Source: a virus (taxonomy: Duplodnaviria; Heunggongvirae; Uroviricota; Caudoviricetes). From it: 12,160 bases of DNA. This document shows positions 1-12,160 of this stretch, piece by piece (the stretch's first letter is position 1; each line of letters opens with the position of its first letter). A program made the position numbers and the translations under genes. The notes beneath the pieces are model-generated. The model did no database searches. It saw only the letters and a list, made by a program, of their open reading frames with translations, and had not been told where the DNA came from. The DNA lies in the IMG/VR virus record IMGVR_UViG_2728369554_000008, positions 1 through 12,160 of that record; one strand, written 5' to 3'.

Positions 1-339
1 TTATAATTTGTTACTGTGCCACTCAAGGGCAATATCTTTGAAGGTGTTGTTTAACTGCGTTTCCCGGGCAATCTTTTCCTCTCGCTTCACTTCCATCAGA
101 TCGATTCCCCCAGAGATACCTCTTTTAGCTTCTTCAAGTTTTGCAGGAGCATCAGCTAAGGTGACCTCAGGATACACACCTAGTGCTAACAGCTTCTCTT
201 TACCAGCTACACGATACTTGAGACGCCAATATTCTCCTCCACCAGGTTTTACCAGGAGGTACAGACCACCACCATCAGCCAACTTGTAAGCCTTCTCTTT
301 TGGCTTGGCAGTGTCTATTTGACGGGCATTGAGTTTCAC
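1..339 (-). CDS. P4-type tyrosine integrase, N-terminal arm-type DNA-binding domain only (112 aa; probably a truncated remnant)
   Basis: Minus-strand ORF starting at GTG 337-339 with GGAG about 9 nt upstream; the complement of positions 1-3 is TAA. Translation MKLNARQIDTAKPKEKAYKLADGGGLYLLVKPGGGEYWRLKYR...EWHSNKL matches the conserved N-terminus of P4-family integrases, which are normally about 400 aa, so the catalytic domain is missing from this frame. Confidence 0.7.
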   Translation of the reverse strand: MKLNARQIDTAKPKEKAYKLADGGGLYLLVKPGGGEYWRLKYRVAGKEKLLALGVYPEVTLADAPAKLEEAKRGISGGIDLMEVKREEKIARETQLNNTFKDIALEWHSNKL

Positions 340-493
340 TTGGGGGTATCTCCACTAAACTGAACAGCAAATCCCCTCAATTGCTTGTAGAGTTTGGGGT
401 ACTTAAATAGACGTCAAAAGACTAAAAGGGGCATTAATATACTGATTATAAGAGGTTTTTAAATACTTGAGTAGACTTGGGGAGACGTTAGAA

Positions 494-537
494 TGGTGCG
501 ATAATAGGAGTCGAACCTACGACCTTCGCATTACGAA
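494..537 (-). other. tRNA 3'-half remnant (tRNA-Thr(CGU)-like); putative attachment-site direct repeat, not a complete tRNA gene
   Basis: Reverse complement of 494-537 reads TTCGTAA-TGCGA-AGGTC-GTAGG-TTCGACT-CCTAT-TATCGC-A-CCA: anticodon loop with CGU, variable loop, T-arm with GGTTCGAnTCC, acceptor 3' strand and CCA. Sequence upstream of the anticodon loop (538-570) has no D-arm or 5' acceptor strand, and the acceptor strand is one nt short of canonical length. Confidence 0.6.
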
Positions 538-898
538 TTATAAGAATCCGCTTCTAATTCAAAGCATTACCCCATCAACACTGCGCTCACACGTCCCACC
601 ACATCAAAACATGTAAAGCCTTGCAAGCCATTGCGAGGCCTTATGTGTCTCAGTTTTGTCCCACCTTGTATTACGACTTGCATAGCCAATGAAGATAAAC
701 GTGACGACAAACGGCGCAGCAGTCTTCTTTTCCTTCATACTTTCCCCACCCAGCATGCATACCTTTATGCCATAACTGAAGTTTATGTCTGTTATGAGCG
801 AGGAGCGGAAGTCCGCAATTGTTCTTGCAACTAGGGCAGCTAAAAGACATGGCAGGCAAATGTCTACATGTAGGATACACCTGCTATCATAAAGAATC

Positions 899-1678
899 TT
901 AGTCCTGAAGCATTTTAACTTTCTTCTCATGCTTTTTATATTCGCCATTTATCCATTCAGGTTCTTCCCGAATAGCTGATCGCATACAGTGTGTTGGGAT
1001 ATCATTCCAGAAAGCTGTAATCGCATCTGCAAACTCTATAAACTGTGTTTCTGTAACCTCAAGTTGCTCATGACGTAGACTAAATCTATAGCCTCCTGGA
1101 ATATTGATATCCTGATAATACTCAGGATGCGCGACGGAAAGCTCCCGATGGGCATGGCCATCACCGTGCTTATAAACATTGACTACTTGGCGACAGGCAT
1201 CGATTTTTTCGTAATAAGCCTTGCCGGTGATATCCATCCCAACCCATTCTAGAATTTCAATTAGCCTTGGGAAGCCGATGTCCCAGATCATCGATGTTAC
1301 GGGTTTAGAGTCGAGCCAATGACTGAATTCACGGATACACTTTTCTCGAAGTTCCTTATCGAACTGGTGAAACATTCCTGCTGTCAGAGCAAGTGAAACC
1401 GTATTTTTCATATCACTGAGGGCAATCCAATGTGAAATTCCTTCATCATAAGCCTGTTCCCAGATAGCCCCCTCGTCGTCATAATCGGGGTCAAAACGCT
1501 TACCGGCGGCCTCATAGTAATCTTTTTCTTTCTGCCGAGCTTCAGCTTCAAGATCAGAATCGCTAAACTGCGAAAATAAACGTTTTCTGGCTTCAGAAAC
1601 ATAAAAATTGTGTTTGTCGAGGAAGTAAGCCCGATCAATGGTTGCAAAATAAAAAAGTGAAAAATCTTTTTCGCTCAT
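899..1678 (-). CDS. Hypothetical acidic protein, about 259 aa, function unknown (accessory cargo)
   Basis: ORF track gives 899-1756. The start is placed at the internal ATG (1676-1678) because GAGGGAG lies 6 nt upstream; the protein then begins MSEKDFSLFYF. It is rich in D/E, has an HGDGHAHRE segment, and matches no structural-phage motif I recognise. A hand count of line 1201-1260 gives 24/60 G+C. Confidence 0.7.
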   Translation of the reverse strand: MSEKDFSLFYFATIDRAYFLDKHNFYVSEARKRLFSQFSDSDLEAEARQKEKDYYEAAGKRFDPDYDDEGAIWEQAYDEGISHWIALSDMKNTVSLALTAGMFHQFDKELREKCIREFSHWLDSKPVTSMIWDIGFPRLIEILEWVGMDITGKAYYEKIDACRQVVNVYKHGDGHAHRELSVAHPEYYQDINIPGGYRFSLRHEQLEVTETQFIEFADAITAFWNDIPTHCMRSAIREEPEWINGEYKKHEKKVKMLQD

Positions 1679-2007
1679 GGGGATCTCCCTCGTTTCGTCA
1701 GTTCTACAAGCCCTTGGAAGTAGGCTGCTAATAAAGAAAAGATTACATTTGAACAACTGTGCAAGATAGCAGTACGCCTAAAGGTAGTGCAAGTATCCCA
1801 ACTAAGGTAACGATGCGTTTTCAAATATATGACTTAACGCTCGCGATATCCGCTTCTGGCACGAGGCGGACAGAACATGTGGACATGACGTCAGCTCTAA
1901 GCGAGGAGCTGATGCTAGCGGGGTAGGTTCAGTACAATCATAGGAGAGATCCAAAGTGTGCAGACACTGACTAAATTAAAGAAAATAGCATCTACGCTAT
2001 ATGGATA

Positions 2008-2928
2008 TTAATAATGTCTATGACGAATATCATTATACGCAGCCTCGGAAAGTTCGAATACCCGATCCAATCCGGAATGGGGTAATTCCACAACCAATCC
2101 CCGCTGAATAAGTTTATCGATCTGCATTAAAGCTATTTTATCTACAATAGATCGAGATAACTTAGGCGTTGCACCCAATAATACAGCTTTATATACTTCC
2201 ATAATTCTTACAATACTAGGCTCCCGATTACTATGCCTTAATTTAATAGCGCGAGTGAAACTAGGAAGCGAAAACTGTCGTCCTGACATGTTAAGTTCAA
2301 CATGTCCATAGAACATGTTAAATAGAATCCTTCGAAGTCCTTCATCAGATGATAAATAATCTATTAATTCTTCTTGTCTCTTTTCTTGAATCCAAGTTCT
2401 AATAAAGAGCCATCCTGATAATAACGATACACATAATAGATAGTATTGCGAATCAGGGAGCTGTAGCCAAGGTCCAATGATTGGGTTATCTTTAGCCGTA
2501 TTGGGAAACGTAAAAAAGAAAGCGCTTAGCGTCGCAAATACTCCTGACCCCAATCGAGGGAGAAATGCACGGGATCGTGTATCACTCCGAACTTCTGACT
2601 TTATTAATGAAGGCGTCAGACTAACAGTCTGAGTTCCTGTCGCAGTAATCACTTTAACCAAATCCATCACTTGTGACATGGGTATCAACTGTTTGTCATT
2701 TTCATCCGTAGATTTCTCAATAGACTGATTATCAATGAATTCTTTTGCTGAATTAAGGTGTTGCCATAGATTTTTTGACTCATCATCAATAAAAATACCA
2801 CTAGTATTGTCTGGATGTATTGATGCCATTTTTCTGACTATTGCCTGGCGTAACCCATTTGGGTCATTTTCCATAACATTAGAAAACTTAAAATATGCAG
2901 CAATTTCTTTATTATTTTTCCAGTCCAT
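2008..2928 (-). CDS. Hypothetical protein with two central hydrophobic segments, about 306 aa, very AT-rich (accessory cargo); start uncertain (2928 or 3003)
   Basis: ORF 2008-3003 in the track. No Shine-Dalgarno precedes the first ATG at 3003; the ATG at 2926-2928 (MDWKNNK) follows an AT-rich promoter-like stretch. Hydrophobic segments LGSGVFATLSAFFFTF and YYLLCVSLLSGWLFI. A hand count of line 2101-2160 gives 19/60 G+C. Confidence 0.65.
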   Translation of the reverse strand: MDWKNNKEIAAYFKFSNVMENDPNGLRQAIVRKMASIHPDNTSGIFIDDESKNLWQHLNSAKEFIDNQSIEKSTDENDKQLIPMSQVMDLVKVITATGTQTVSLTPSLIKSEVRSDTRSRAFLPRLGSGVFATLSAFFFTFPNTAKDNPIIGPWLQLPDSQYYLLCVSLLSGWLFIRTWIQEKRQEELIDYLSSDEGLRRILFNMFYGHVELNMSGRQFSLPSFTRAIKLRHSNREPSIVRIMEVYKAVLLGATPKLSRSIVDKIALMQIDKLIQRGLVVELPHSGLDRVFELSEAAYNDIRHRHY

Positions 2929-3472
2929 AGTAATTCTGCCCAATGAAGTAAAATATAAAATTTTATTTTTTCGTTTAGGTTGAGGTTTAATTAACAAAAG
3001 CATTAATGCTAAATCAAACGATAGTTCGCAATGACAATATAAACGTTTTCAGTGAGTTAAGCAATACTAGGAAATTATGAGACAGATTACGTCGCCTCCA
3101 CCATAATGATTAACGAACCGTACTTTTTGCAAAGTCCGCATCTGGCACATAGCAGACCAGAGACACTGGCGTAAAGCCATGGAGGATCGGTGGGAGGAGG
3201 TAAAAATCCTCTCATGCAAAAAATACGCAAAATCGATAACAGTTGGAAATCATTCAATACTCGCACTATCGAAAGTTCACCAGCCAACCGCAGCGCGTTC
3301 TTGCATACGACGTGGCTGCGGTTTCAACTCCGTCCCCCACCAATCATGATTGGGCAGTACCAGTACAGCACTAGTAAAAACTGGAAATAAGCAGTCTCAG
3401 CAAAATACCGGCCAGACGGTGAGAAGACAAAAAAGATACGCAAAGTAGCCGCGGCCCTTAGTGACATGAAAT

Positions 3473-3492
3473 CCCGCTATACGGGCTTTTTT
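3473..3492 (+). terminator. Candidate intrinsic terminator or attenuator hairpin upstream of the 3568 gene
   Basis: CCCG-CTATA-CGGG stem-loop followed directly by CTTTTTTGT on the plus strand. The stem is short (4 GC pairs), so function is uncertain. Confidence 0.3.
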
Positions 3493-3567
3493 GTATCTGC
3501 ACACGATTGATTATTAGGTCCGTATAGCTAATAGTGGTCTTAACCTACATATAGAATCAGAGACTTT

Positions 3568-4263
3568 ATGAAAAAGGAAATACTCAAGGCTCTTTGCCCT
3601 ACATGCGGTGGGTTACGTAACTGCACTGTGCATGGGAAGCTAACCACTAGCTGGGAGGATTCCCAATATCCAGTTTATGGGTACCATTACCATCACCTAC
3701 TCCAATGCAATGGCTGTGATACTGTCTTCTATCACCACAACGAACACTTCAGTGAGCATACTACCCACGAATATCGTGATGGTGAATTTGTAGAAACGCC
3801 TATAGATATGATCACTACCTATCCTGCCGCTGAAACATTTCAAGCTCCGATATGGTTATCCAAGCTTGAATCAGTTGATCGTCAGCTCTTTCAAATATTT
3901 AATGAAATGTATTCTTCATATACTTCTGACCATTTCATCCTTTCGTCCATCGGTTTACGGACGATTTTTGATCGAACTGCTGAACTGTTACAAATTCACC
4001 CCGGTTTGCCGCTTGGTGAAAAAGTTGAAAAATTAAAACAAGATGGAGTCATAGGCGACACTGAGGCATGCGTTATATCTTCTGTAATTGATGCAGGAAA
4101 CGCCGCCGCACATCGCAGTTGGAGCCCGAATAAAAGTGAGTTCGAACAAATGCTAGAAGCTATAGAAAGTTTTGTCCAAAGAACTATCTTGGGCAAAAAA
4201 TCACTTGAACATATAACCAAACAACTCCCACCTCGGGTTACAAGACCTAAAAATAGTGCATAA
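3568..4263 (+). CDS. Zinc-ribbon plus DUF4145-like domain protein, 231 aa (candidate accessory/defence gene)
   Basis: N-terminus has CPTC (x33) CNGC, a four-cysteine zinc-ribbon pattern. The C-terminus LGEKVEKLKQDGVIGDTEACVISSVIDAGNAAAHRSWSPNKSEFEQMLEAIESFV fits the remembered DUF4145 pattern (L-x-x-K-I-x-x-L, then G-N-x-A-A-H). A hand count of line 3901-3960 gives 22/60 G+C. It is convergent with the invertase gene. Confidence 0.8.
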   Translation: MKKEILKALCPTCGGLRNCTVHGKLTTSWEDSQYPVYGYHYHHLLQCNGCDTVFYHHNEHFSEHTTHEYRDGEFVETPIDMITTYPAAETFQAPIWLSKLESVDRQLFQIFNEMYSSYTSDHFILSSIGLRTIFDRTAELLQIHPGLPLGEKVEKLKQDGVIGDTEACVISSVIDAGNAAAHRSWSPNKSEFEQMLEAIESFVQRTILGKKSLEHITKQLPPRVTRPKNSA

Positions 4264-4289
4264 TCCGCGATCATCAATGTGGCGTAAGG

Positions 4290-4847
4290 TTATGGTTTAC
4301 TTGCTACAGGGAATTTTTTATACACCGTTGAAATACCCAGATCATAAATCAGTGCGACTTGCTGCTGATATATTCCCGATTCAATCAACCTGCCAGCCTG
4401 CTCCCATTGTTCTACTGTCAGCTTTGGCTTTCGCCCACCATTCCTCCCTTCTTGTCGTGCTGCGGCAAAGCCCGCCCTAGTACGTTCGACAATAAGCTCT
4501 CGCTCCATTTCAGCCAGGGCACCCATCACATGAAAGAAAAAGCGCCCCATTGGTGTGCTGGTATCAATAGCATCCGTCAGGCTGCGAAAATTAACGCCAC
4601 GTTCGCGCAACTCCTCCACCAGCACGACAAGATGCCGCATACTGCGCCCCAGTCGGTCCAGTTTCCAGACTACCAGAGTGTCACCTGCTGATAATGTTCT
4701 GAGCAGTTTTTTCAGTCCCGGTCGGTCGGACTTAGTGCCGCTGATCTTATCTTCAAAAATCAGCTCACATCCTGCACACTCCAGCGCATTACGCTGCAAT
4801 TCCGTATTCTGGTCATTTGTTGATACGCGGACATAGCCAATAAGCAT
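4290..4847 (-). CDS. pin: Site-specific DNA invertase, serine recombinase of the Pin/Gin/Hin/Cin family
   Basis: Translation MLIGYVRVSTNDQNT...GDTLVVWKLDRLGRSM...MGRFFFHVMGALAEMERELIVERT with a C-terminal helix-turn-helix: the catalytic Ser in YVRVST and the hallmark motifs of DNA invertases. The start is set at the ATG (4845-4847) preceded by AGGGGA; the track's extension to 4892 is not supported by family alignment. Confidence 0.95.
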   Translation of the reverse strand: MLIGYVRVSTNDQNTELQRNALECAGCELIFEDKISGTKSDRPGLKKLLRTLSAGDTLVVWKLDRLGRSMRHLVVLVEELRERGVNFRSLTDAIDTSTPMGRFFFHVMGALAEMERELIVERTRAGFAAARQEGRNGGRKPKLTVEQWEQAGRLIESGIYQQQVALIYDLGISTVYKKFPVASKP

Positions 4848-4874
4848 GAGCATTCCCCTGAGTAAAAACCGGGG

Positions 4875-5414
4875 ATGATGCCAGTTAGCCATAATCTCTG
4901 CATTTTCTTAAACGTTGGTTTGGGAGAAGGCTCTGCATTACCTGTTGGTGTCCCTGTTCCGTGGCCTTCAGCCACACCGCCAACAGGCTGGCTGAAATGC
5001 AATGGTGCCGCTTTTTCTGCTGAAGAATACCCGGAACTGACAAAGGCTTATCCGACAAATAAATTGCCTGATTTACGTGGTGAGTTTATTCGTGGCTGGG
5101 ATGACGGGCGGGGGATTGATACAGGTCGCTCTATTTTAAGTATTCAGGGGTATGCAACGGAGGATCATGCTCATGGATTACCGTCAAGATCCACGATTGT
5201 GACTGATGCAACGATTAATTTCTATTTTGATGAAAACTGGGTAAATAGTGGCACTGACATTATCAAAAGAGGAAACACAAACGATGCCGGATTACCAGCA
5301 CCGGATTATGGAACCTTTAAAACATATAAACAATCAGTGGCTGGTTTAGGTACCGCAGCCTCAGAAACGCGTCCGCGTAATATTGCATTTAACTATATCG
5401 TAAGGGCAGCCTGA
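4875..5414 (+). CDS. Alternative tail-fibre C-terminal cassette (Sv'-type), currently in the unexpressed orientation; functional coding begins at the crossover site near 4917
   Basis: Translation across the site reads NVGLGEG, matching NLGLGEA in the constant part of the tail-fibre gene at 6812-6837. Downstream motifs WLKCNGAAFSAEEYPELTKAYPTNKLPDLRGEFIRGWDDGRG are typical of Mu/P1/e14-type fibre tips. There is no plausible independent start; the ATG at 4875 lies in the invertase upstream region. Confidence 0.8.
   Translation: MMPVSHNLCIFLNVGLGEGSALPVGVPVPWPSATPPTGWLKCNGAAFSAEEYPELTKAYPTNKLPDLRGEFIRGWDDGRGIDTGRSILSIQGYATEDHAHGLPSRSTIVTDATINFYFDENWVNSGTDIIKRGNTNDAGLPAPDYGTFKTYKQSVAGLGTAASETRPRNIAFNYIVRAA
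4903..4928. repeat. Invertase crossover site 1 (hix/gix-like, 12-2-12)
   Basis: Plus strand TTTTCTTAAACG-TT-GGTTTGGGAGAA. Its reverse complement shares TTCTCCCAAACCAA with site 2, and it lies about 56 bp upstream of the invertase start. Confidence 0.8.
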
Positions 5415-6016
5415 TGCATAAAGCAATATTAAATAGTGAGCTTATTGCAACAAAGGCAGGGGATGTTACCGTTTATAACTACGATGGTGAAACACTGGAA
5501 TATATTTCCACGTCAACTGAATATCTTGCTGTGGGTGTCGGTATTCCGGCATGTTCCTGTCTTGATGCACCTGGCATACATAAGGTTGGTTATGCAATCT
5601 GTCGTTCTGTGAATTTAAATTCATGGGAATATGTGCCAGACCATCGCGGTGAAATCGTCTATAGCACCGAAACAGGAGAATCAAAAGAAATCACAGCTCC
5701 GGGTGATTACCCTGAAAATACAACCACTATCGCCCCTTTATCTCCATACGATAAATGGGATGGTGAGAAATGGGTGACCGATACTGAGGCACAGCATAGC
5801 GCCGCAGTCGAAGCGGCAGAAGCACAACGCCAGTCACTGATTGATGCTGCAATGGCTTCCATTAGTCTGATTCAGCTGAAATTACAAGCCGGACGGAAAC
5901 TGACGCAGGCAGAAACAACCCGACTTAACGCCGTGCTGGATTACATTGACGCGGTGACGGCAACAGATACCAGCACCGCGCCGGATGTCATCTGGCCTGA
6001 ACTGCCGGAGGCGTAG
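5414..6016 (+). CDS. Tail-fibre assembly protein (Tfa/U'-type), partner of the silent fibre cassette
   Basis: Its ATG overlaps the TGA of the preceding cassette (TGATG). The C-terminus LDYIDAVTATDTSTAPDVIWPELPEA parallels the C-terminus of the opposite-strand Tfa, as in paired U/U' chaperones. Confidence 0.85.
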   Translation: MHKAILNSELIATKAGDVTVYNYDGETLEYISTSTEYLAVGVGIPACSCLDAPGIHKVGYAICRSVNLNSWEYVPDHRGEIVYSTETGESKEITAPGDYPENTTTIAPLSPYDKWDGEKWVTDTEAQHSAAVEAAEAQRQSLIDAAMASISLIQLKLQAGRKLTQAETTRLNAVLDYIDAVTATDTSTAPDVIWPELPEA

Positions 6017-6431
6017 GCCATTCAATATCTGGAGCACTGGAGATATCCACCAGTTCCAGTGCGTCCAGGTAATCCAGCCACAAATTATATTGCGCCAGTT
6101 CCTCGCCTTTCAGACGACCAATAGCGGCTTTACCGGGCCATTGTTTACTGTTCATGTATTCGTTGGCCTGGTTAATTAGTAGCTGTCTTTCTGATTCAGT
6201 AATTTCAATAAGCTCTTCATGCGTGGGTGGAGGAATATCTGCCCACGCAGGCAGCCCATCATCTCCGGCAATACGGATTTTTCCTTGTGGCGGTTCAGCC
6301 ATAAACTCACTGATAATATTTTGATTTACTTCCTTAGCGTCTGATAAATCCCATCCCTCTGATTTATATTTATCAATCATATCCACAGGGAAAAAAGCAT
6401 TATGCCTTGCGCTATAAACATATTCGTTCAT
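5988..6431 (-). CDS. Tail-fibre assembly protein (Tfa/U-type), partner of the expressed fibre
   Basis: Start is set at the ATG (6429-6431, MNEYVY) preceded by AGGGTGA; the track begins at an upstream GTG (6440). C-terminus LWLDYLDALELVDISSAPDIEWPTPP. Its 3' end overlaps the convergent Tfa gene by about 29 bp. Confidence 0.85.
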   Translation of the reverse strand: MNEYVYSARHNAFFPVDMIDKYKSEGWDLSDAKEVNQNIISEFMAEPPQGKIRIAGDDGLPAWADIPPPTHEELIEITESERQLLINQANEYMNSKQWPGKAAIGRLKGEELAQYNLWLDYLDALELVDISSAPDIEWPTPPAVQAR

Positions 6432-6451
6432 ATAAATCACCCTGAATAAAA

Positions 6452-7114
6452 TTACTCACCAACAGCCCACCAACTGTAATTCATCGATACCGTGTCGCTG
6501 GTTGATGACGTTCTGTAAGCAGAATTAAAGCCGGTTAACGTTGGGTCTTCTGCAGTCATCACGAACCCTCGCCCAGCGCCTAAAGGCGCACCGCCATCAC
6601 CAGAATGAGTAAGCATGGCGCAGTCCGCTTTTTTGGGGAAAGGGATGCTGAATGTAATTCTCATTGTTTGCGTCGATAATTTCGGCGTAACCGCACCACG
6701 ACCATATTGCAGGATTTTCCCGTTGGGTAATTTCATCCATCCATCACCACTGGCAAAAGAGGCCATGTCCGGTATCTGATTTTCCCCTGTTCCAACCCCC
6801 CGTTTCGCCGCTTCTCCCAAACCAAGGTTTTCGAGAGCCGTTGGTACTGTGCCATCCGATTTGATATCACCAAACGGATTCTTGCGGCTTAACAGCAGCG
6901 CACGAAGCGCTGTAAGCAGCTGGTCATGCCGCCCCTTCTCCAGGCTGGCACCGGATGCCTCCACCACGCTGCAAAGCTCCTCCTGCAACATGTCAAAGTA
7001 GTCATCATCCAGATCGGTGGCAGGCGTGCCGGTCTGGGGGTTACCACGGGTAAAACCGTTCTTACCCGCGCCGAACTTATCCTTCTGCGCGGTTTTCGTG
7101 TCTATACGATGCAT
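6452..7114 (-). CDS. Tail-fibre protein (constant N-terminal part fused to the currently expressed variable C-terminal part)
   Basis: N-terminus [67 protein letters not shown] is a conserved prophage tail-fibre N-terminal domain. Crossover site 2 lies inside the gene at 6812-6837, so residues after ALENLGLGE are exchangeable. Confidence 0.9.
6812..6837. repeat. Invertase crossover site 2 (hix/gix-like, 12-2-12), inside the tail-fibre gene
   Basis: Plus strand TTCTCCCAAACC-AA-GGTTTTCGAGAG, an imperfect palindrome with an AA core. It is inverted relative to site 1 (plus-strand core TT) and resembles hixL as I remember it (TTCTTGAAAACC-AA-GGTTTTTGATAA). Confidence 0.8.
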
Positions 7115-7117
7115 GAA

Positions 7118-7702
7118 TTACTCCGGATATTTAAAAATTACGTAGGTATGCGACGGGCAGAGTTTGTTAAGCACACACTCGACAACGGTGTCGCCCCAGA
7201 TACGCAGTGCGGAATCACAGGGATCGCCACATGTCATCCAGGTGGTGTTGGTGGCGGCTGGCATGTTGACCTGCCAGTAATACCGCCATTCCGGCGCATT
7301 CACCGCGTCAGTACAGGCCGATGAGCAGGTGAACGTGCTTTTGTCGTATCGCGTGATGGTGGCGTCTGGTCTGCCCAGGGCAGCAAGCTGTGCAAGGTAA
7401 AAATCCTCATTGATGCCGCCCGCCAGGTTAACCTTCGCATCCAGTCGTTGCTGACGCTGGCGAAGGGTCTGTGTCCCTGCGGGAATACATTCATCCGGCA
7501 GGCCGCACAGACGCTCCCAGCGGTTTATCAGTTCGGTGGTGGTGCGCGGATCCAGCTCCCGCATCAGGGCATCCGCACGCTGATGAACGCGGGTTAATGA
7601 CGGTGCCGCACCGGCAATCGCCGGATCTCTGGCTGACCACGCCGGACCGGGGGGCAACAGTGCCGACAACAGACGGATGTAATCATCGTTTGTCACGTCC
7701 AT
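7118..7702 (-). CDS. Mu gp48-like tail/baseplate protein (DUF2313, e14 YmfQ-like), 194 aa
   Basis: Lies directly upstream of the tail-fibre gene with a 3-nt gap, and its size and position match Mu gp48 and e14 YmfQ. Assigned by position and remembered family features; no search was run. Confidence 0.8.
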
Positions 7703-8751
7703 GAAATCGTCCCCAGTACCGCCAGTTCATTTTTTGCAATGGAGATATTGTCTGCCGGTGCAAGCAACTGATGGCTGTATTCCCCGTTCGCACCGGAAAT
7801 CGCCTCACTGATACGCGACACCTTCAGTTCTCCCTGCGGATAACCATCACGCAGCAGGAACGAACGCAACTCGGCGGTGATGGCAGCCCGTATTTCCGGT
7901 GTGTCCGGCGTCACGCGGATATGAAAATCCACTTTATGCGCCACCGGCCTGAATACATACAAATCAGAGCCTGCCACCGGGGCCAGTGGCTCAATGTGTT
8001 GTCTTGCCGCCGTTTCCGTTGATTCTTCCGGAATGGGATTAATCAGGTCACTGCCGGCAATCATCACACCGACAGTCCCCGTTCCCATCCAGTGGCGGTA
8101 TGTCCATGCGCGGGTAATGCCGGGCACTTCTTTAGCCCAGACAACATAGTCCCCGTCAGCCCCGCCCTGAGGAGTCCAGTAATACCGCTCAATGACGCGG
8201 GCGCGCCACGTTTCCAGATCTTCAGTATCAAATCCACCTGTCAGAGTGTCTGCCACGCCGGAAGACGGCAGACCATTAACCGGCGTGACCAGGATTAATG
8301 ACGTACCGTCGTCAGCGTTACCGACCGTGCCTGCACTTGAGCAGGCGATCGGCACGCGCAGGACACCACCGGCGCTGGTTGCATCGGCAGTTGCCGTGTA
8401 CTGAACCAGGTCATCGCGCTGAATAACACTCCCGGCGGTCACCTTCAGGCCATCGCTGACGCCTTCCCAGCGCATATACCCGCTGGCAGTCGTGGCCCCC
8501 TTGCGCGGACACCGTTTCATCGCAGCATGTCGCGCCAGCCAGGACTCATCGCACAGGTCAGGCAGCATGTTCATTGCCAGATAATCGATGTACCCGTAAA
8601 CCGTATGCAGCGCCGCCGCATACACCTTTGCCCGCACGTCTTCATCCATGCGCCGGAGCGTGTCGCTGACGTCCAGCCTGGCGAATAAATCGTTACGGAG
8701 CATACTGATATTTTCTGCCAGCGTCGGGCGCTGAAATTCACTGTCCGCCAT
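7693..8751 (-). CDS. Baseplate J-like protein (Mu gp47 homologue), 352 aa
   Basis: Size and position in the operon match Mu gp47. Its 3' end overlaps the gp48-like start by 10 nt. Confidence 0.85.
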
Positions 8752-9166
8752 GCGTTATCGCACTCCACAGATCATCAAAAGAAATCATTACCGGTCCGTC
8801 ACGACGCCAGAGAGTGATACTGTTACCCAGTTCATTAATCCCGGTGCGGCGGATATCCAGATCAATACGGGACACCACGCCGTCATCAATCATCCATTGC
8901 AGGCATTCGCGGATATACCCCCTTACCGTCAGCACCAGTTGATTGGTCAGTTTGCTGCGCTGAAGCAGCCACAGTCGGGAGCCGTAACGGTCATTCTGTA
9001 CCGCAGGCCAGGTATCCCCCCACCATCCCATCGGGACTTCGGCGTTGTCATCAGGCTCCGCCCGCCGCCAGGTAAACAGGGAAATCACCACAGCGCGGGT
9101 CAGCGGATCCAGCTGTGCGCTGGCGCAGGTGCGTTTACCGTTCACCGTCAGCCACAGTTCCATCAT
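8738..9166 (-). CDS. Mu gp46-like baseplate protein (Phage GP46 family), 142 aa
   Basis: Small protein between the gp45-like and gp47-like genes, overlapping both neighbours, as in Mu. Confidence 0.8.
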   Translation of the reverse strand: MMELWLTVNGKRTCASAQLDPLTRAVVISLFTWRRAEPDDNAEVPMGWWGDTWPAVQNDRYGSRLWLLQRSKLTNQLVLTVRGYIRECLQWMIDDGVVSRIDLDIRRTGINELGNSITLWRRDGPVMISFDDLWSAITHGGQ

Positions 9167-9711
9167 GCCTCCATCGCTTTATCAGGTTTGTCGGTGTTAC
9201 TGCCCTGACCGTTCTCTCTGTGACGATGCCCGTTATAGGCAAGCCGCATCGCTGACATGGTGGTACCGCCGGAGTCGCACAGGTCTTTCACCTGTCCGGT
9301 CACTTCCAGGTCCATTTCAAAACGTGCTCTGGGCGCATTGCGAAACGTGATCGTTTTACCTGCACCGTCCACCACAATCCCCTCCCGGGTCAGCGTCACG
9401 GACTGCCCCTGATCGTCATAGACCGCCACCTCACCCGTCTGCAGCCCTTTCAGGCGGTAGCGCCGGTCCGACACCGTAACAACCACCGCATGAGAACGGT
9501 CACCATCCGGAAACAACACCACCGCTTCCGCACCGCTGTTTGCCCTTGCGGTAAAACCGTAGGGTTCAAGATGTTCAACCCCGGCTTTGGGTTCACCGGC
9601 AATCAGGGACACATCCACGGTCTGACATTTCGTGGCGGCACTGATGCTTTTCACCACTGCCCGCCCAATCAGCCCGAGGAGTTGTCGCTGCATGGCTTCA
9701 ATCGTCCTCAT
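9163..9711 (-). CDS. Baseplate assembly/spike protein V-like (Mu gp45 homologue), 182 aa
   Basis: Position and size match Mu gp45. Stop and start overlap the neighbours (ATGA-type coupling). Confidence 0.8.
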   Translation of the reverse strand: MRTIEAMQRQLLGLIGRAVVKSISAATKCQTVDVSLIAGEPKAGVEHLEPYGFTARANSGAEAVVLFPDGDRSHAVVVTVSDRRYRLKGLQTGEVAVYDDQGQSVTLTREGIVVDGAGKTITFRNAPRARFEMDLEVTGQVKDLCDSGGTTMSAMRLAYNGHRHRENGQGSNTDKPDKAMEA

Positions 9712-10790
9712 CAGAACGGGTCCTCCTGTACTCTGGCTTTTTTCTTTTTCCGCGCGCCGGGGGCTTCGGGTTCAGGCAGATAAGCATCAGGCGGGCCGAC
9801 ACGGATTTCCGTCAGGGTGCCGTTCTGGTCCTGAGTAAACGTGACTTCCGAGACAAGCAGTTCGGTATTGTCGAAACCACAGACAGGATCGAAGACAATC
9901 ACCCGCTGGTTGGGCTGCCACAGCGTACCGTTACCCTGTCGCCAGCCCTGCACCACATAGGTGGTTTCATCCGTCCGCGCCGCCCGTTGCCGGGCTTCAA
10001 AGTCAGCACGCGCAATACAGCCTGCCCCCGTAGCCTGCCCTGTCTGCCTGATATACATCGGACGGTAACGGGCAATAAATGCGTCTTCTGTGCGGGCCCG
10101 CAGCGCGGTGGTGGTGGCCTCACCGAAATCATCGTCGTTTCCGGCACGCTGCCCCGCCACCTGGTAAACAGAAAACCGCTCCCGGATACTCTTCTCCGTA
10201 TCGCAGGAAAGGATGTTTTCCCCAAGTACCAGCGCGGTATGTGCCCGCGTTGAGCCAATACCGCCAATCACCAGCCTGCCGTGCGGGTCGTCGTAAGCCA
10301 GCGCCTGCTGCTGACCGAGTATTTTGTTGATCACCTCAATCACCGTTTCACCGTGATCAGGCTGGACATCAGGAATAACACCCGACGGCGCACCGCTGTT
10401 CACCACCTCAATGCCGAAAGGCGCAGCAAGCGCCTGCGCAATCTGAACCAGCGATCGTCCGTTAAACTGTGTCGGTTCGGCTGCACAGTCAATCAGGTCA
10501 GCGGTCAGACTACGCCCAGCAATACCGGTGCTGACCGAACGGGCATCATAACGAACGGGAGTCGCCTCCACCCAGCCGGTGATCACCAGCTCATCACCAA
10601 TCAGCACTTCCACTTTTGAACCGTTTTTAATACGCGGCTGAAGCGTGGTGATACCCTCATCTCCCGGCCACTGGCGGGTGATCTCCACACTGAAATCCCG
10701 CGTCAGCCGTTCAATACCGGCACCGATGCGCACCGATGTCCAGCCATTCCACTCCCGGCCATTTACCCGTAGCGTGACGTTATCATTCAT
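9711..10790 (-). CDS. Mu gp44(P)-like baseplate hub / phage late control D-family protein, 359 aa
   Basis: Position between the gp43-like and gp45-like genes, with a lysine-rich C-terminus (ARKKKKARVQEDPF). High G+C and translationally coupled to neighbours. Confidence 0.8.
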   Translation of the reverse strand: MNDNVTLRVNGREWNGWTSVRIGAGIERLTRDFSVEITRQWPGDEGITTLQPRIKNGSKVEVLIGDELVITGWVEATPVRYDARSVSTGIAGRSLTADLIDCAAEPTQFNGRSLVQIAQALAAPFGIEVVNSGAPSGVIPDVQPDHGETVIEVINKILGQQQALAYDDPHGRLVIGGIGSTRAHTALVLGENILSCDTEKSIRERFSVYQVAGQRAGNDDDFGEATTTALRARTEDAFIARYRPMYIRQTGQATGAGCIARADFEARQRAARTDETTYVVQGWRQGNGTLWQPNQRVIVFDPVCGFDNTELLVSEVTFTQDQNGTLTEIRVGPPDAYLPEPEAPGARKKKKARVQEDPF

Positions 10791-12160
10791 AGCACTGGCA
10801 CCTTCAGAGGGATCACCGGCACAAAGCCGGGATGCGTAATGGCATTACGCCGGATAATGTCCGCGTCACGCGCCGCGTTATCAAACCAGGTCGCCGCCAG
10901 CACCAGCGCGGGTAAGACCTCATCCGGCGTGCGCTGAATGATCCGTGCAGACTGTTCAAGGCGCGTGTTGATATCCGCATTCAGATCTGCTTTCACCCGG
11001 CGCAGCGCCAGAAACAGCGCATCACTGGTTGTACGGGACAACTCCTTATCAATTGCCGTATTCAGTGTGTCGCGAATGTCAGTCAGTTCTTCCCACGTCG
11101 GCAGGTCAACCGTGTTTTTCACCGCCGGTGCATTGTTCAGTGCCGGATGCGTGACGGAAGGCCAGCCGGTGCTCTGCGCGGGTGTTGTTGACTGCCCCAC
11201 TGCGGCATTCTGCATCACCGCGGAAATTGTTGGCGCAGGCAATCGGGTGATGGCATACGCCGCTTCGCTGATTGCGGTCGTACGAAGGGTGCTGGCAACC
11301 ACGTTACGCTGCTGCGTTGCCGTGGCGGTGGTTTTACTGTCCGTTTTCCAGACGCCGCGCGGTTGCAGATCGCTGCCGAGGCTGACACCGGAAAGCGTTT
11401 TGATCATGGTGACCAGGTCGCTGGCGTTACCATAAAGGCGTTTCCCGGTACGCCACATTTTCTGCACCTGCTCAACGAAATTTTTGCCTGACGATGGCGG
11501 CGGCAGAAGTACCGAGATATCCCCCTGCAACAGCCTGGCGGCATCCGATACGGCAGAATCCACCACTTTCATCGCATCAGAAACATACCCCAGCATTATG
11601 CTGGCATTACCGATAACGTCGTTCTGCACGAAATCCGCCACACCATCGATACTGAAACCGCTGAAGCTGTCACTGATGCAGTCATCCAGTGCAGAACAGG
11701 ATGACATCAGCGTCTGCGCCGTCGCCACACCTGATGTGGGGTAAGAGAGTTCTCCTGCTTCGACAAACTTCAGGTCAAAGCGGACAATACGCCCTTCACT
11801 TTTCGATGTGCTGACCCGAACTTCCCCGTCAACACAGACTTTCAGCTCACCATATGTCGGGTGGACAAGCGTGCCGGGACCGGGTTTATTCAGCGCTTCA
11901 ATCAGGCGATCGCGCTGGTCAAAGCAGTCATCTCCCACCACATAAGCTGTGATGGACGGGCGGAAAGTGACTTTTCCCAGATCTTCGGTATAGGGCTTGT
12001 CGCGGTTCGGGTATTCGTGCGTTTCCACACGACGACCGGTTCCCGCACTTTCTTCTTCAACCTTAAACGGCACACCTCGAAATGATGCTTCAAGTAGCTT
12101 TTCACGCCAGCCACTTCGAGAATCAGAGGATAGGTACGAAGAAATATGAGAAAAATCCAT
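10787..12160 (-). CDS. Mu gp43(N)-like DNA circularisation protein; the ATG coincides with the window edge, so the true start may lie outside
   Basis: N-terminal region WREKLLEASFRGVPFKVEEESAGTGRRVETHEYPNRDKPYTEDLGKV...GPGTLVHPTYGEL matches the DNA circularisation N-terminal domain as I remember it, followed by a long Ala/Thr/Ser-rich region. Overlaps the gp44-like start by 4 nt. Confidence 0.85.
   Translation of the reverse strand: MDFSHISSYLSSDSRSGWREKLLEASFRGVPFKVEEESAGTGRRVETHEYPNRDKPYTEDLGKVTFRPSITAYVVGDDCFDQRDRLIEALNKPGPGTLVHPTYGELKVCVDGEVRVSTSKSEGRIVRFDLKFVEAGELSYPTSGVATAQTLMSSCSALDDCISDSFSGFSIDGVADFVQNDVIGNASIMLGYVSDAMKVVDSAVSDAARLLQGDISVLLPPPSSGKNFVEQVQKMWRTGKRLYGNASDLVTMIKTLSGVSLGSDLQPRGVWKTDSKTTATATQQRNVVASTLRTTAISEAAYAITRLPAPTISAVMQNAAVGQSTTPAQSTGWPSVTHPALNNAPAVKNTVDLPTWEELTDIRDTLNTAIDKELSRTTSDALFLALRRVKADLNADINTRLEQSARIIQRTPDEVLPALVLAATWFDNAARDADIIRRNAITHPGFVPVIPLKVPVL

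Follow-up and report, generated by a model that had tools for sequence, protein, structure and literature searches.

A pix-flanked invertible tail-fibre segment of the e14 type in an SfV-like Escherichia prophage

Genes and features of the locus

We analysed a 12,160-nt stretch of tailed-phage DNA (Caudoviricetes; IMG/VR record IMGVR_UViG_2728369554_000008, positions 1 to 12,160), hereafter the window, in which a first-pass annotation made from the letters alone had marked an invertible tail-fibre segment. All coordinates are positions in this window. The segment carries two alternative fibre tips with their chaperone genes, is bounded by two inverted recombination sites and adjoins a serine DNA invertase gene, and both of its orientations are present in public genomes (Table 1).

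The expressed tail fibre consists of a constant N-terminal part of 101 aa, encoded by 6812-7114, and a variable tip of 119 aa, encoded by 6452-6811. The tip of the second cassette is 161 aa long. The annotation had estimated these tips at about 120 and 165 aa. They belong to different Pfam families, Gp53-like_C and Collar, and each has its own chaperone of the Caudo_TAP family. The two chaperone genes converge and overlap by 29 bp (5988-6016), as had been read from the letters. The start of the 200-aa chaperone gene overlaps the stop codon of the Collar tip (TGATG); the open reading frame (ORF) of the 147-aa chaperone was listed to 6440, from a GTG start. All or part of the 18-aa leader of the second cassette falls outside the segment, as does the ATG at 4875, which opens a 179-aa ORF. 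The second cassette had been called silent; it is not, however, strictly start-less, and the same holds for stfE of Escherichia coli K-12.

When 4915-6825 was replaced in silico by its reverse complement, core to core, the fibre frame was kept. The flipped fibre was a single 262-aa ORF made of the shared 101 aa and the 161-aa Collar tip, and its stop codon overlapped the start of the 200-aa chaperone gene.

The Collar tip resembled the collar region of the T4 gp37 tip (PDB 2XGF, 6e-18) and was also related to gp12. A PDB sequence search with the Gp53-like fibre gave a weak match to a short tail fibre (E=0.002) and a sub-threshold match to the N-terminus of Mu S; no receptor could be inferred for this fibre from that search. 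A promoter scan of 4200-7300 found 4 promoter-like sites (4.3 expected), with nothing above chance inside the segment. Terminator-like sites in the same interval numbered 4 (2.9 expected). Both results are uninformative for transcription of the invertase gene or the 4875 ORF.

Table 1. Features of the invertible segment and its surroundings in the window
Feature	Position	Strand	Remarks
Invertible segment	4915..6825		1,911 bp core to core; 1,881 bp unique between repeats
Expressed tail fibre, 220 aa	6452..7114	-	Pfam Gp53-like_C, residues 128-219
Second cassette: 18-aa leader and 161-aa Collar tip (StfE-type)	4875..5414	+	Pfam Collar, 5.4e-15
Collar-tip chaperone, TfaE-type, 200 aa	5414..6016	+	Pfam Caudo_TAP, 6e-33
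Chaperone of the expressed tip, TfaP-type, 147 aa	5988..6431	-	Pfam Caudo_TAP, 4.5e-31
pixR-type site, invertase-proximal	4903..4928	-	25/26 to pixR; boundary of the inversion in a 100%-identical flipped twin
pixL site inside the fibre gene	6812..6837	+	26/26 to pixL
Serine DNA invertase (Pin orthologue), 185 aa, starts MLIGYVRVSTNDQ	4290..4847	-	Pfam Resolvase, 1.8e-51; HTH_7, 2.2e-11
Putative Fis-dependent enhancer	4763..4825		Two Fis-like 15-mers (4811-4825 and 4763-4777), inferred
Mu/SfV-type baseplate and tail module, intact	7118..12160	-	Pfam Phage_Mu_Gp48, Baseplate_J; gene calls on identical contigs agree
P4-type integrase, cut to its first 112 aa	1..339	-	Arm-DNA-bind_3 domain only; stop at window edge

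Recombination sites

The site in the fibre gene reads TTCTCCCAAACC AA GGTTTTCGAGAG, and the reverse complement of the invertase-side site reads TTCTCCCAAACC AA CGTTTAAGAAAA. Both have a 12-2-12 layout with an AA core and the same inner half-site TTCTCCCAAACC, show half-site dyad matches of 8-9/12, and lie in inverted orientation; they are identical to each other at 21 of 26 positions. The core dinucleotides are 4915-4916 (TT on the plus strand, AA on the minus strand) and 6824-6825 (AA). Identical AA cores in inverted orientation are a requirement of the Din-family cleavage and rotation chemistry. The first-pass annotation had given the same coordinates and layout and had placed both sites within the coding sequence of the fibre and of the second cassette. 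The translations bear this out: the fibre gene 6452-7114(-) codes through 6812-6837, and over 4903-4928, ORF 4875-5414(+) encodes IFLNVGLGEGSALP, also given as FLNVGLGEGSALP across the left site.

The sites were compared with the published table of 26-bp sites, which includes pixL and pixR (Table 3 of PMC3241671). The fibre-gene site was identical to pixL and to the K-12 stfP site at all 26 positions, and the reverse complement of the invertase-side site agreed with pixR and with K-12 e14 at 25 of 26. The sites taken from the K-12 MG1655 genome are TTCTCCCAAACCAAGGTTTTCGAGAG and TTCTCCCAAACCAACGTTTATGAAAA, the same sequences that are listed as pixL and pixR (PMC3241671). Identity to hixL and cix was 19-20/26 (hixL 20/26 at best), to gix 17-18/26, and to a mix site 21/26. 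The annotation had noted a resemblance to hix and gix sites and had expected alignment with known invertase sites. The resemblance is true but understated; the agreement with pixL and pixR makes these pix sites.

The 14-mer TTCTCCCAAACCAA had two exact copies in the window, one per strand. An independent repeat search returned 4910-4929 / 6811-6830 as the longest inverted repeat in the window (20 nt, 95% complementary). Its exact arm is 15 nt long, and an inverted repeat of at least 15 nt arose in 8 of 200 dinucleotide-preserving shuffles, which makes it only modestly improbable when taken alone. Because this value is marginal, the case was not built on repeat statistics; chance is excluded by the identity to published sites. 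The second-best inverted repeat, 5935-5952 / 6061-6078 (18 nt, 89% complementary), is not a site: it arises because the converging chaperones share homologous motifs at their C-termini, LDYIDA and LDYLDA. A shufflon-like multiple inversion was rejected, as only two sites in the window fit the inner half-site pattern.

Among species-representative genomes, the exact pixL 26-mer was confined to Escherichia and Shigella, save for one metagenome-assembled contig. This is a 5.8-kb contig labelled Bacillota (L043, 155-180), which is probably a mis-binned enterobacterial prophage fragment.

Invertase and candidate enhancer

The invertase ORF is intact and adjoins the switch, as the annotation had stated; a longer ORF to 4892 probably does not mark the real start. 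The protein was 84% identical to K-12 PinE over 184 aa, and its residues 1-181 aligned full-length with Mu Gin (PDB 3UJ3/4M6F, E=1e-91). The catalytic serine is present in YVRVS (family motif YxRVSxxxQ). Helix B of the invertase, GLKKLLR (K46, K47, R50), aligned with GLKRALK of Gin, and EQAGRL with EQAGRL; the helix-B residues are presumably offset by one from the Hin numbering. The residues of Hin that contact Fis and the enhancer are K47, K/R48 and K/R51 in helix B, and Q151, R154 and L155 in helix 1 of the DNA-binding domain; they are described as setting apart the invertases that depend on Fis and the enhancer (McLean et al., PMC3798978).

Two Fis-like 15-mers in the 5′ part of the invertase gene match GNNYRNNWNNYRNNC. 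Within the gene their centres fall at +30 and +78, a spacing of 48 bp, and the proximal centre is ~97 bp from the centre of site 4903-4928. The distance from hixL to the hin enhancer is ~100 bp (PMC3798978). The pair occupies the same positions in pinE and Mu gin, in DNA blocks that are identical across the three genes; the consensus is loose. A scan with the Fis consensus gave many 6/7 matches, as expected of a permissive consensus, and the assignment of the pair as the recombinational enhancer is suggestive only.

Both orientations of the segment occur in nature

The two orientations were counted in 5,426 complete E. coli genomes at a coverage of at least 80%. The observed arrangement was found in 57 genomes and the flipped arrangement in 64.

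We also looked up contigs that encode the 200-aa chaperone of the window. One of them (L026; GCA_017201735.1) was identical to the in-silico flipped window over 6,501 bp (window 2500-9000), with 0 mismatches and 0 gaps. Another (L030; GCA_011874525.1) matched the observed orientation equally exactly over the same 6,501 bp. With lengths of 854,619 and 854,556 nt, the two contigs are probably from one clone. In the same genomic context, this look-up gave the flipped state in L026 with 7 similar places, and the observed state in L030 with 2 similar places, in L034 and in L035.

Pairs of clonal strains gave the same result. CH458 and CH423 were identical over 11,312 bp except for a 1,881-bp block, which was an exact reverse complement, and the cattle strains 119 and 118 were identical over 11,408 bp except for a 1,863-bp block, again an exact reverse complement. 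The inverted blocks of both pairs were flanked by AACGTTGGTTTGGGAGAAG on one side and CTTCTCCCAAACCAAGG on the other. In other prophages, the identical invertase allele occurs with either tip type expressed.

These comparisons with other genomes indicate that the segment inverts, with its breakpoints in the sites. The first-pass annotation had proposed that inversion swaps the tip together with its cognate chaperone, and the sequence obtained by the in-silico flip exists at 100% in a public genome. It had also described the switch as locked in one orientation, and had held that a single orientation ever observed would count against a switch. Both orientations were observed, and 'locked' is not an apt word for the switch: the invertase is intact, both orientations are common, both states of this exact element were recovered, and the window is a snapshot of one state.

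Copies that differ in their annotation or integrity were seen among the relatives. In CH423, the flipped fibre (L003, 6116-6629) carries the label of an incomplete pseudogene, although reverse-complementing its segment gives exactly the intact segment of CH458. A relative in strain G5 (L001, 5091-5647 and 7167-7562) has a frameshifted recombinase and a shortened fibre gene, and is a genuinely decayed copy.

Prophage context and mosaicism

The tail module encodes gp48/YmfQ, baseplate J/gp47, gp46, gp45, a gp44/P-like protein and a DNA circularization protein. As in e14, Mu and SfV-like phages, the gene that precedes the fibre gene is that for gp48/YmfQ. The region 4200-7800 was 100% identical to several NCBI assemblies (L008, L010, L012); among complete RefSeq E. 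coli genomes, none had the whole stretch at >96%. The source organism is probably E. coli or a close relative.

In identical contigs, a MarR-family gene and then a gene for a 1,376-aa Peptidase_S6 autotransporter follow beyond the truncated integrase. Dus-linked relatives have an intact integrase and a DinI gene at this position. The truncation of the nearest integrase means that the prophage may be unable to excise. A tRNA scan of the window found none, hence no attachment-site tRNA lies in the window.

Beyond the invertase lie cargo genes at 899-1756 (-), 2008-3003 (-) and 3568-4263 (+), of which the last is a DUF4145 gene (Pfam). Neither 899-1756 nor 2008-3003 had a Pfam or PADLOC match, and PADLOC gave no match for any of the four ORFs to the left of the invertase. 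In K-12 e14 the cargo position contains mcrA, and in O157:H7-type relatives it contains a GIY-YIG (LEM-3-like) gene. It appears to be a variable cargo slot and might hold defence genes.

G+C content was ~58% in the baseplate genes (7200-12000), 45-47% in the region of the invertible segment and invertase, and 36-44% further left. The change near the boundary between the constant and variable parts of the fibre (6600-7200) is consistent with a mosaic origin. P2-like prophages (L027, L029, L031, L033; ~2991-4918) carry a 1.9-kb segment that is 99.8% identical to window 4910-6836. In those prophages the segment is coupled to a P2 H-type fibre of 515 aa and to another invertase, of 197 aa. Homology ends within a few bases of the sites; the inner half-sites are identical, whereas the outer half-sites differ (GGTATGCGAGAA, CGTTTTATGGAA). 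This pattern suggests that the whole segment is exchanged as a module between unrelated tail types.

Interpretation of the switch and alternative explanations

We consider it very probable that the element is a Pin/e14-type (Din-family) inversion switch in an SfV-like Escherichia prophage with a Mu-type tail. The locus shows these features of the Din family: a resolvase/HTH_7 enzyme, the Fis-contact residues, 26-bp inverted sites with the same core, and inversion. The features of the e14 P-segment type, the pixL/pixR sequences and the synteny, are also present; because both sites and the synteny match, the element is a member of this type. The switch is real but already known, and the window holds an ordinary active copy. 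Knowledge of P-segment inversion in e14 dates back to 1985 (Plasterk and van de Putte, as cited in PMC4272514). The P segment inverts in culture, and the inversion has been seen again with whole-genome sequencing and PCR (PMC4272514) and with quantitative PCR (PMC12529663).

For this element, the two sites, the intact enzyme, a fibre fused in frame in either state and the existence of both states in nature are established; by analogy with the Din-family invertasome (PMC3798978 and PMC4513852), inversion would then proceed as follows. Invertase dimers would bind the two inverted pix sites, host Fis would bind the enhancer in the 5′ end of the invertase gene, and on supercoiled DNA the three segments would come together as an invertasome. 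Both sites would be cut by the catalytic serines at the central AA/TT dinucleotide (the 2-bp core). Half of the tetramer (one subunit pair) would rotate by 180 degrees, and religation would leave 4915-6825 inverted. Dependence on Fis and the enhancer, like cleavage at the core, is what the family predicts. The fibre is presumed to be read from a late operon outside the segment, in line with the absence of above-chance promoter signal inside it. Its first 101 codons (7114 down to 6812) are constant, so each orientation joins them in frame to a different tip. Each orientation also puts the matching Tfa chaperone gene directly downstream of the fibre. A population would thereby hold phage, or phage-derived particles, of two receptor specificities, and a change of host range is the outcome expected by homology.

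Some points weigh against this interpretation. The Gp53-like tip is only weakly similar to solved structures, and the enhancer assignment depends on a permissive consensus. The inversion was seen between genomes, not directly in this isolate. If excision is impossible, a host-range switch would be without phage-level consequence in this strain.

The segment might serve host defence instead of, or besides, host range, if a free leader-fused tip made from the 4875 ORF masked receptors against other phages, like StfE2 of K-12. Inversion of the P segment in K-12 e14 by PinQ or PinE makes the StfE2 chimera, which blocks T2 adsorption, and ~30% of a wild-type K-12 culture and 33% of 562 deposited genomes were inverted (Kirigo et al., PMC12529663). 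The product of the 4875 ORF would be analogous to this chimera, to which that 2025 paper assigns a function: the ATG at 4875, being outside the segment, fuses the leader to whichever tip is off the fibre, and K-12 stfE is built alike. PGAP annotates an ORF of this type as a gene in relatives, and the truncated integrase near this end, if it prevents excision, would shift the balance toward a role at the level of the host. However, the 4875 ORF had no promoter or convincing ribosome-binding site, none of the promoter-like sites found in 4200-7300 being there. The tips differ from the tested K-12 StfP tip (57% identity over the whole fibre). Moreover, the tail module is intact and is shared by inducible phages, and the classical role needs no extra assumption. 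We regard a defence role as unlikely. We are equally doubtful of two broader proposals: that a domesticated prophage keeps the switch mainly to serve the host as a receptor mask, or that the segment is a portable cassette which moves between unrelated prophages via the invertase at pix-type sites. Both the host-serving and the portable-cassette idea already have precedents in the literature.

Persistence of the sites and cassettes as a relic that no longer inverts in this lineage is very improbable. The window does show a single orientation, and strain G5 (H1), with its frameshifted recombinase and truncated fibre, shows that decay occurs. However, the window encodes a full-length invertase that retains its catalytic motif, the two sites are intact, the opposite orientation is present in a genome identical over 6.5 kb, and both states occur several times in the same context. 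It is still harder to credit that the orientations in the databases come from misassembly or from RecA-dependent homologous recombination. Assemblers can be misled by inverted repeats, which can also act in homologous recombination; here, however, the shared identity is only 15 bp, far below sequencing read length. A stretch of 15 bp is also below the length that RecA needs for efficient exchange. Exact flips recur across many closed genomes, with breakpoints that fall at published invertase sites beside an invertase gene. For e14, dependence on pinE and pinQ has been shown experimentally (PMC12529663). Assembly artefact and RecA-mediated inversion were both rejected in view of the exact recurrent flips, the 15-bp identity and the intact enzyme.

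The Pin/e14-type switch in the window is of practical use mainly in annotation and comparative genomics. Two-state loci in otherwise identical genomes lead to apparent structural variants and to orientation-dependent gene calls, such as the CH423 pseudogene. The locus adds another well-preserved case in which temperate Escherichia and Shigella phages hedge their bets on receptor specificity, and raises no new question.

Comparison with known inversion systems

The Salmonella Hin/hix system shares the enzyme family, the site architecture and the AA core with the window, and its enhancer likewise lies ~100 bp from the proximal site, in the invertase gene. Hin, however, flips a promoter, and hin lies within the segment; in the window the invertase is outside the segment and coding sequence is exchanged. 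The C segment of P1 with Cin, the Min system of p15B and the Shigella B segment with PinB are also of the Din family, with 26-bp sites at a conserved motif in tail-fibre genes. They carry other fibres and cassettes, and p15B Min has six sites with several shuffled cassettes, in contrast to only two sites in the window.

The G segment of Mu has the same arrangement, with gp47, gp48, S, U, inverted U′, an inverted S′ tip and gin, and a constant fibre N-terminus. Gin aligns with the window invertase over its full length and acts at 26-bp 12-2-12 sites. The gix core, however, is GA, and the identity of gix to the window sites is only 17-18/26. S is ~500 aa long, compared with 220 and 262 aa for the two fibres of the window; U and U′ do not overlap; and the tips are unrelated in sequence, save for the weak sub-threshold match at the N-terminus.

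The serotype-converting Shigella phages SfV, SfII, SfI and SfIV and the Escherichia phages SKA5 and vB_EcoM-720R4 have baseplate and tail genes and a constant fibre part that are 96-97% identical to those of the window. In SfV, SfII and SfI the match starts at ~6760, and the current tip, both chaperones, the second cassette and the invertase are unmatched; in SfIV the match reaches further, to ~5500. SKA5 has an invertase and two converging tfa genes, with an invertase-side site that differs from that of the window. Two converging tfa genes also stand at the start of the 720R4 record.

The closest counterpart is e14 of K-12. It differs from the window in several respects. The window fibre is 57% identical to StfP, with a nearly identical N-terminus and the divergence mostly in the tip, and the cognate chaperone is 53% identical to TfaP. 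The unique segment is 1,797 bp in K-12 and 1,881 bp in the window. The tail and baseplate module is largely deleted in K-12 (jayE is a pseudogene) and intact in the window, and the cargo beyond the invertase is mcrA in K-12 and the DUF4145 gene in the window. The gene order, however, is the same, with ymfQ, stfP, tfaP, inverted tfaE and stfE, and pinE, the window showing the other strand. The 29-bp overlap of tfaP and tfaE is annotated in K-12 and is also found in relatives. The StfE-type Collar tip and TfaE are each 94% identical between e14 and the window, YmfQ is 98% identical, and the invertases share 84% identity.

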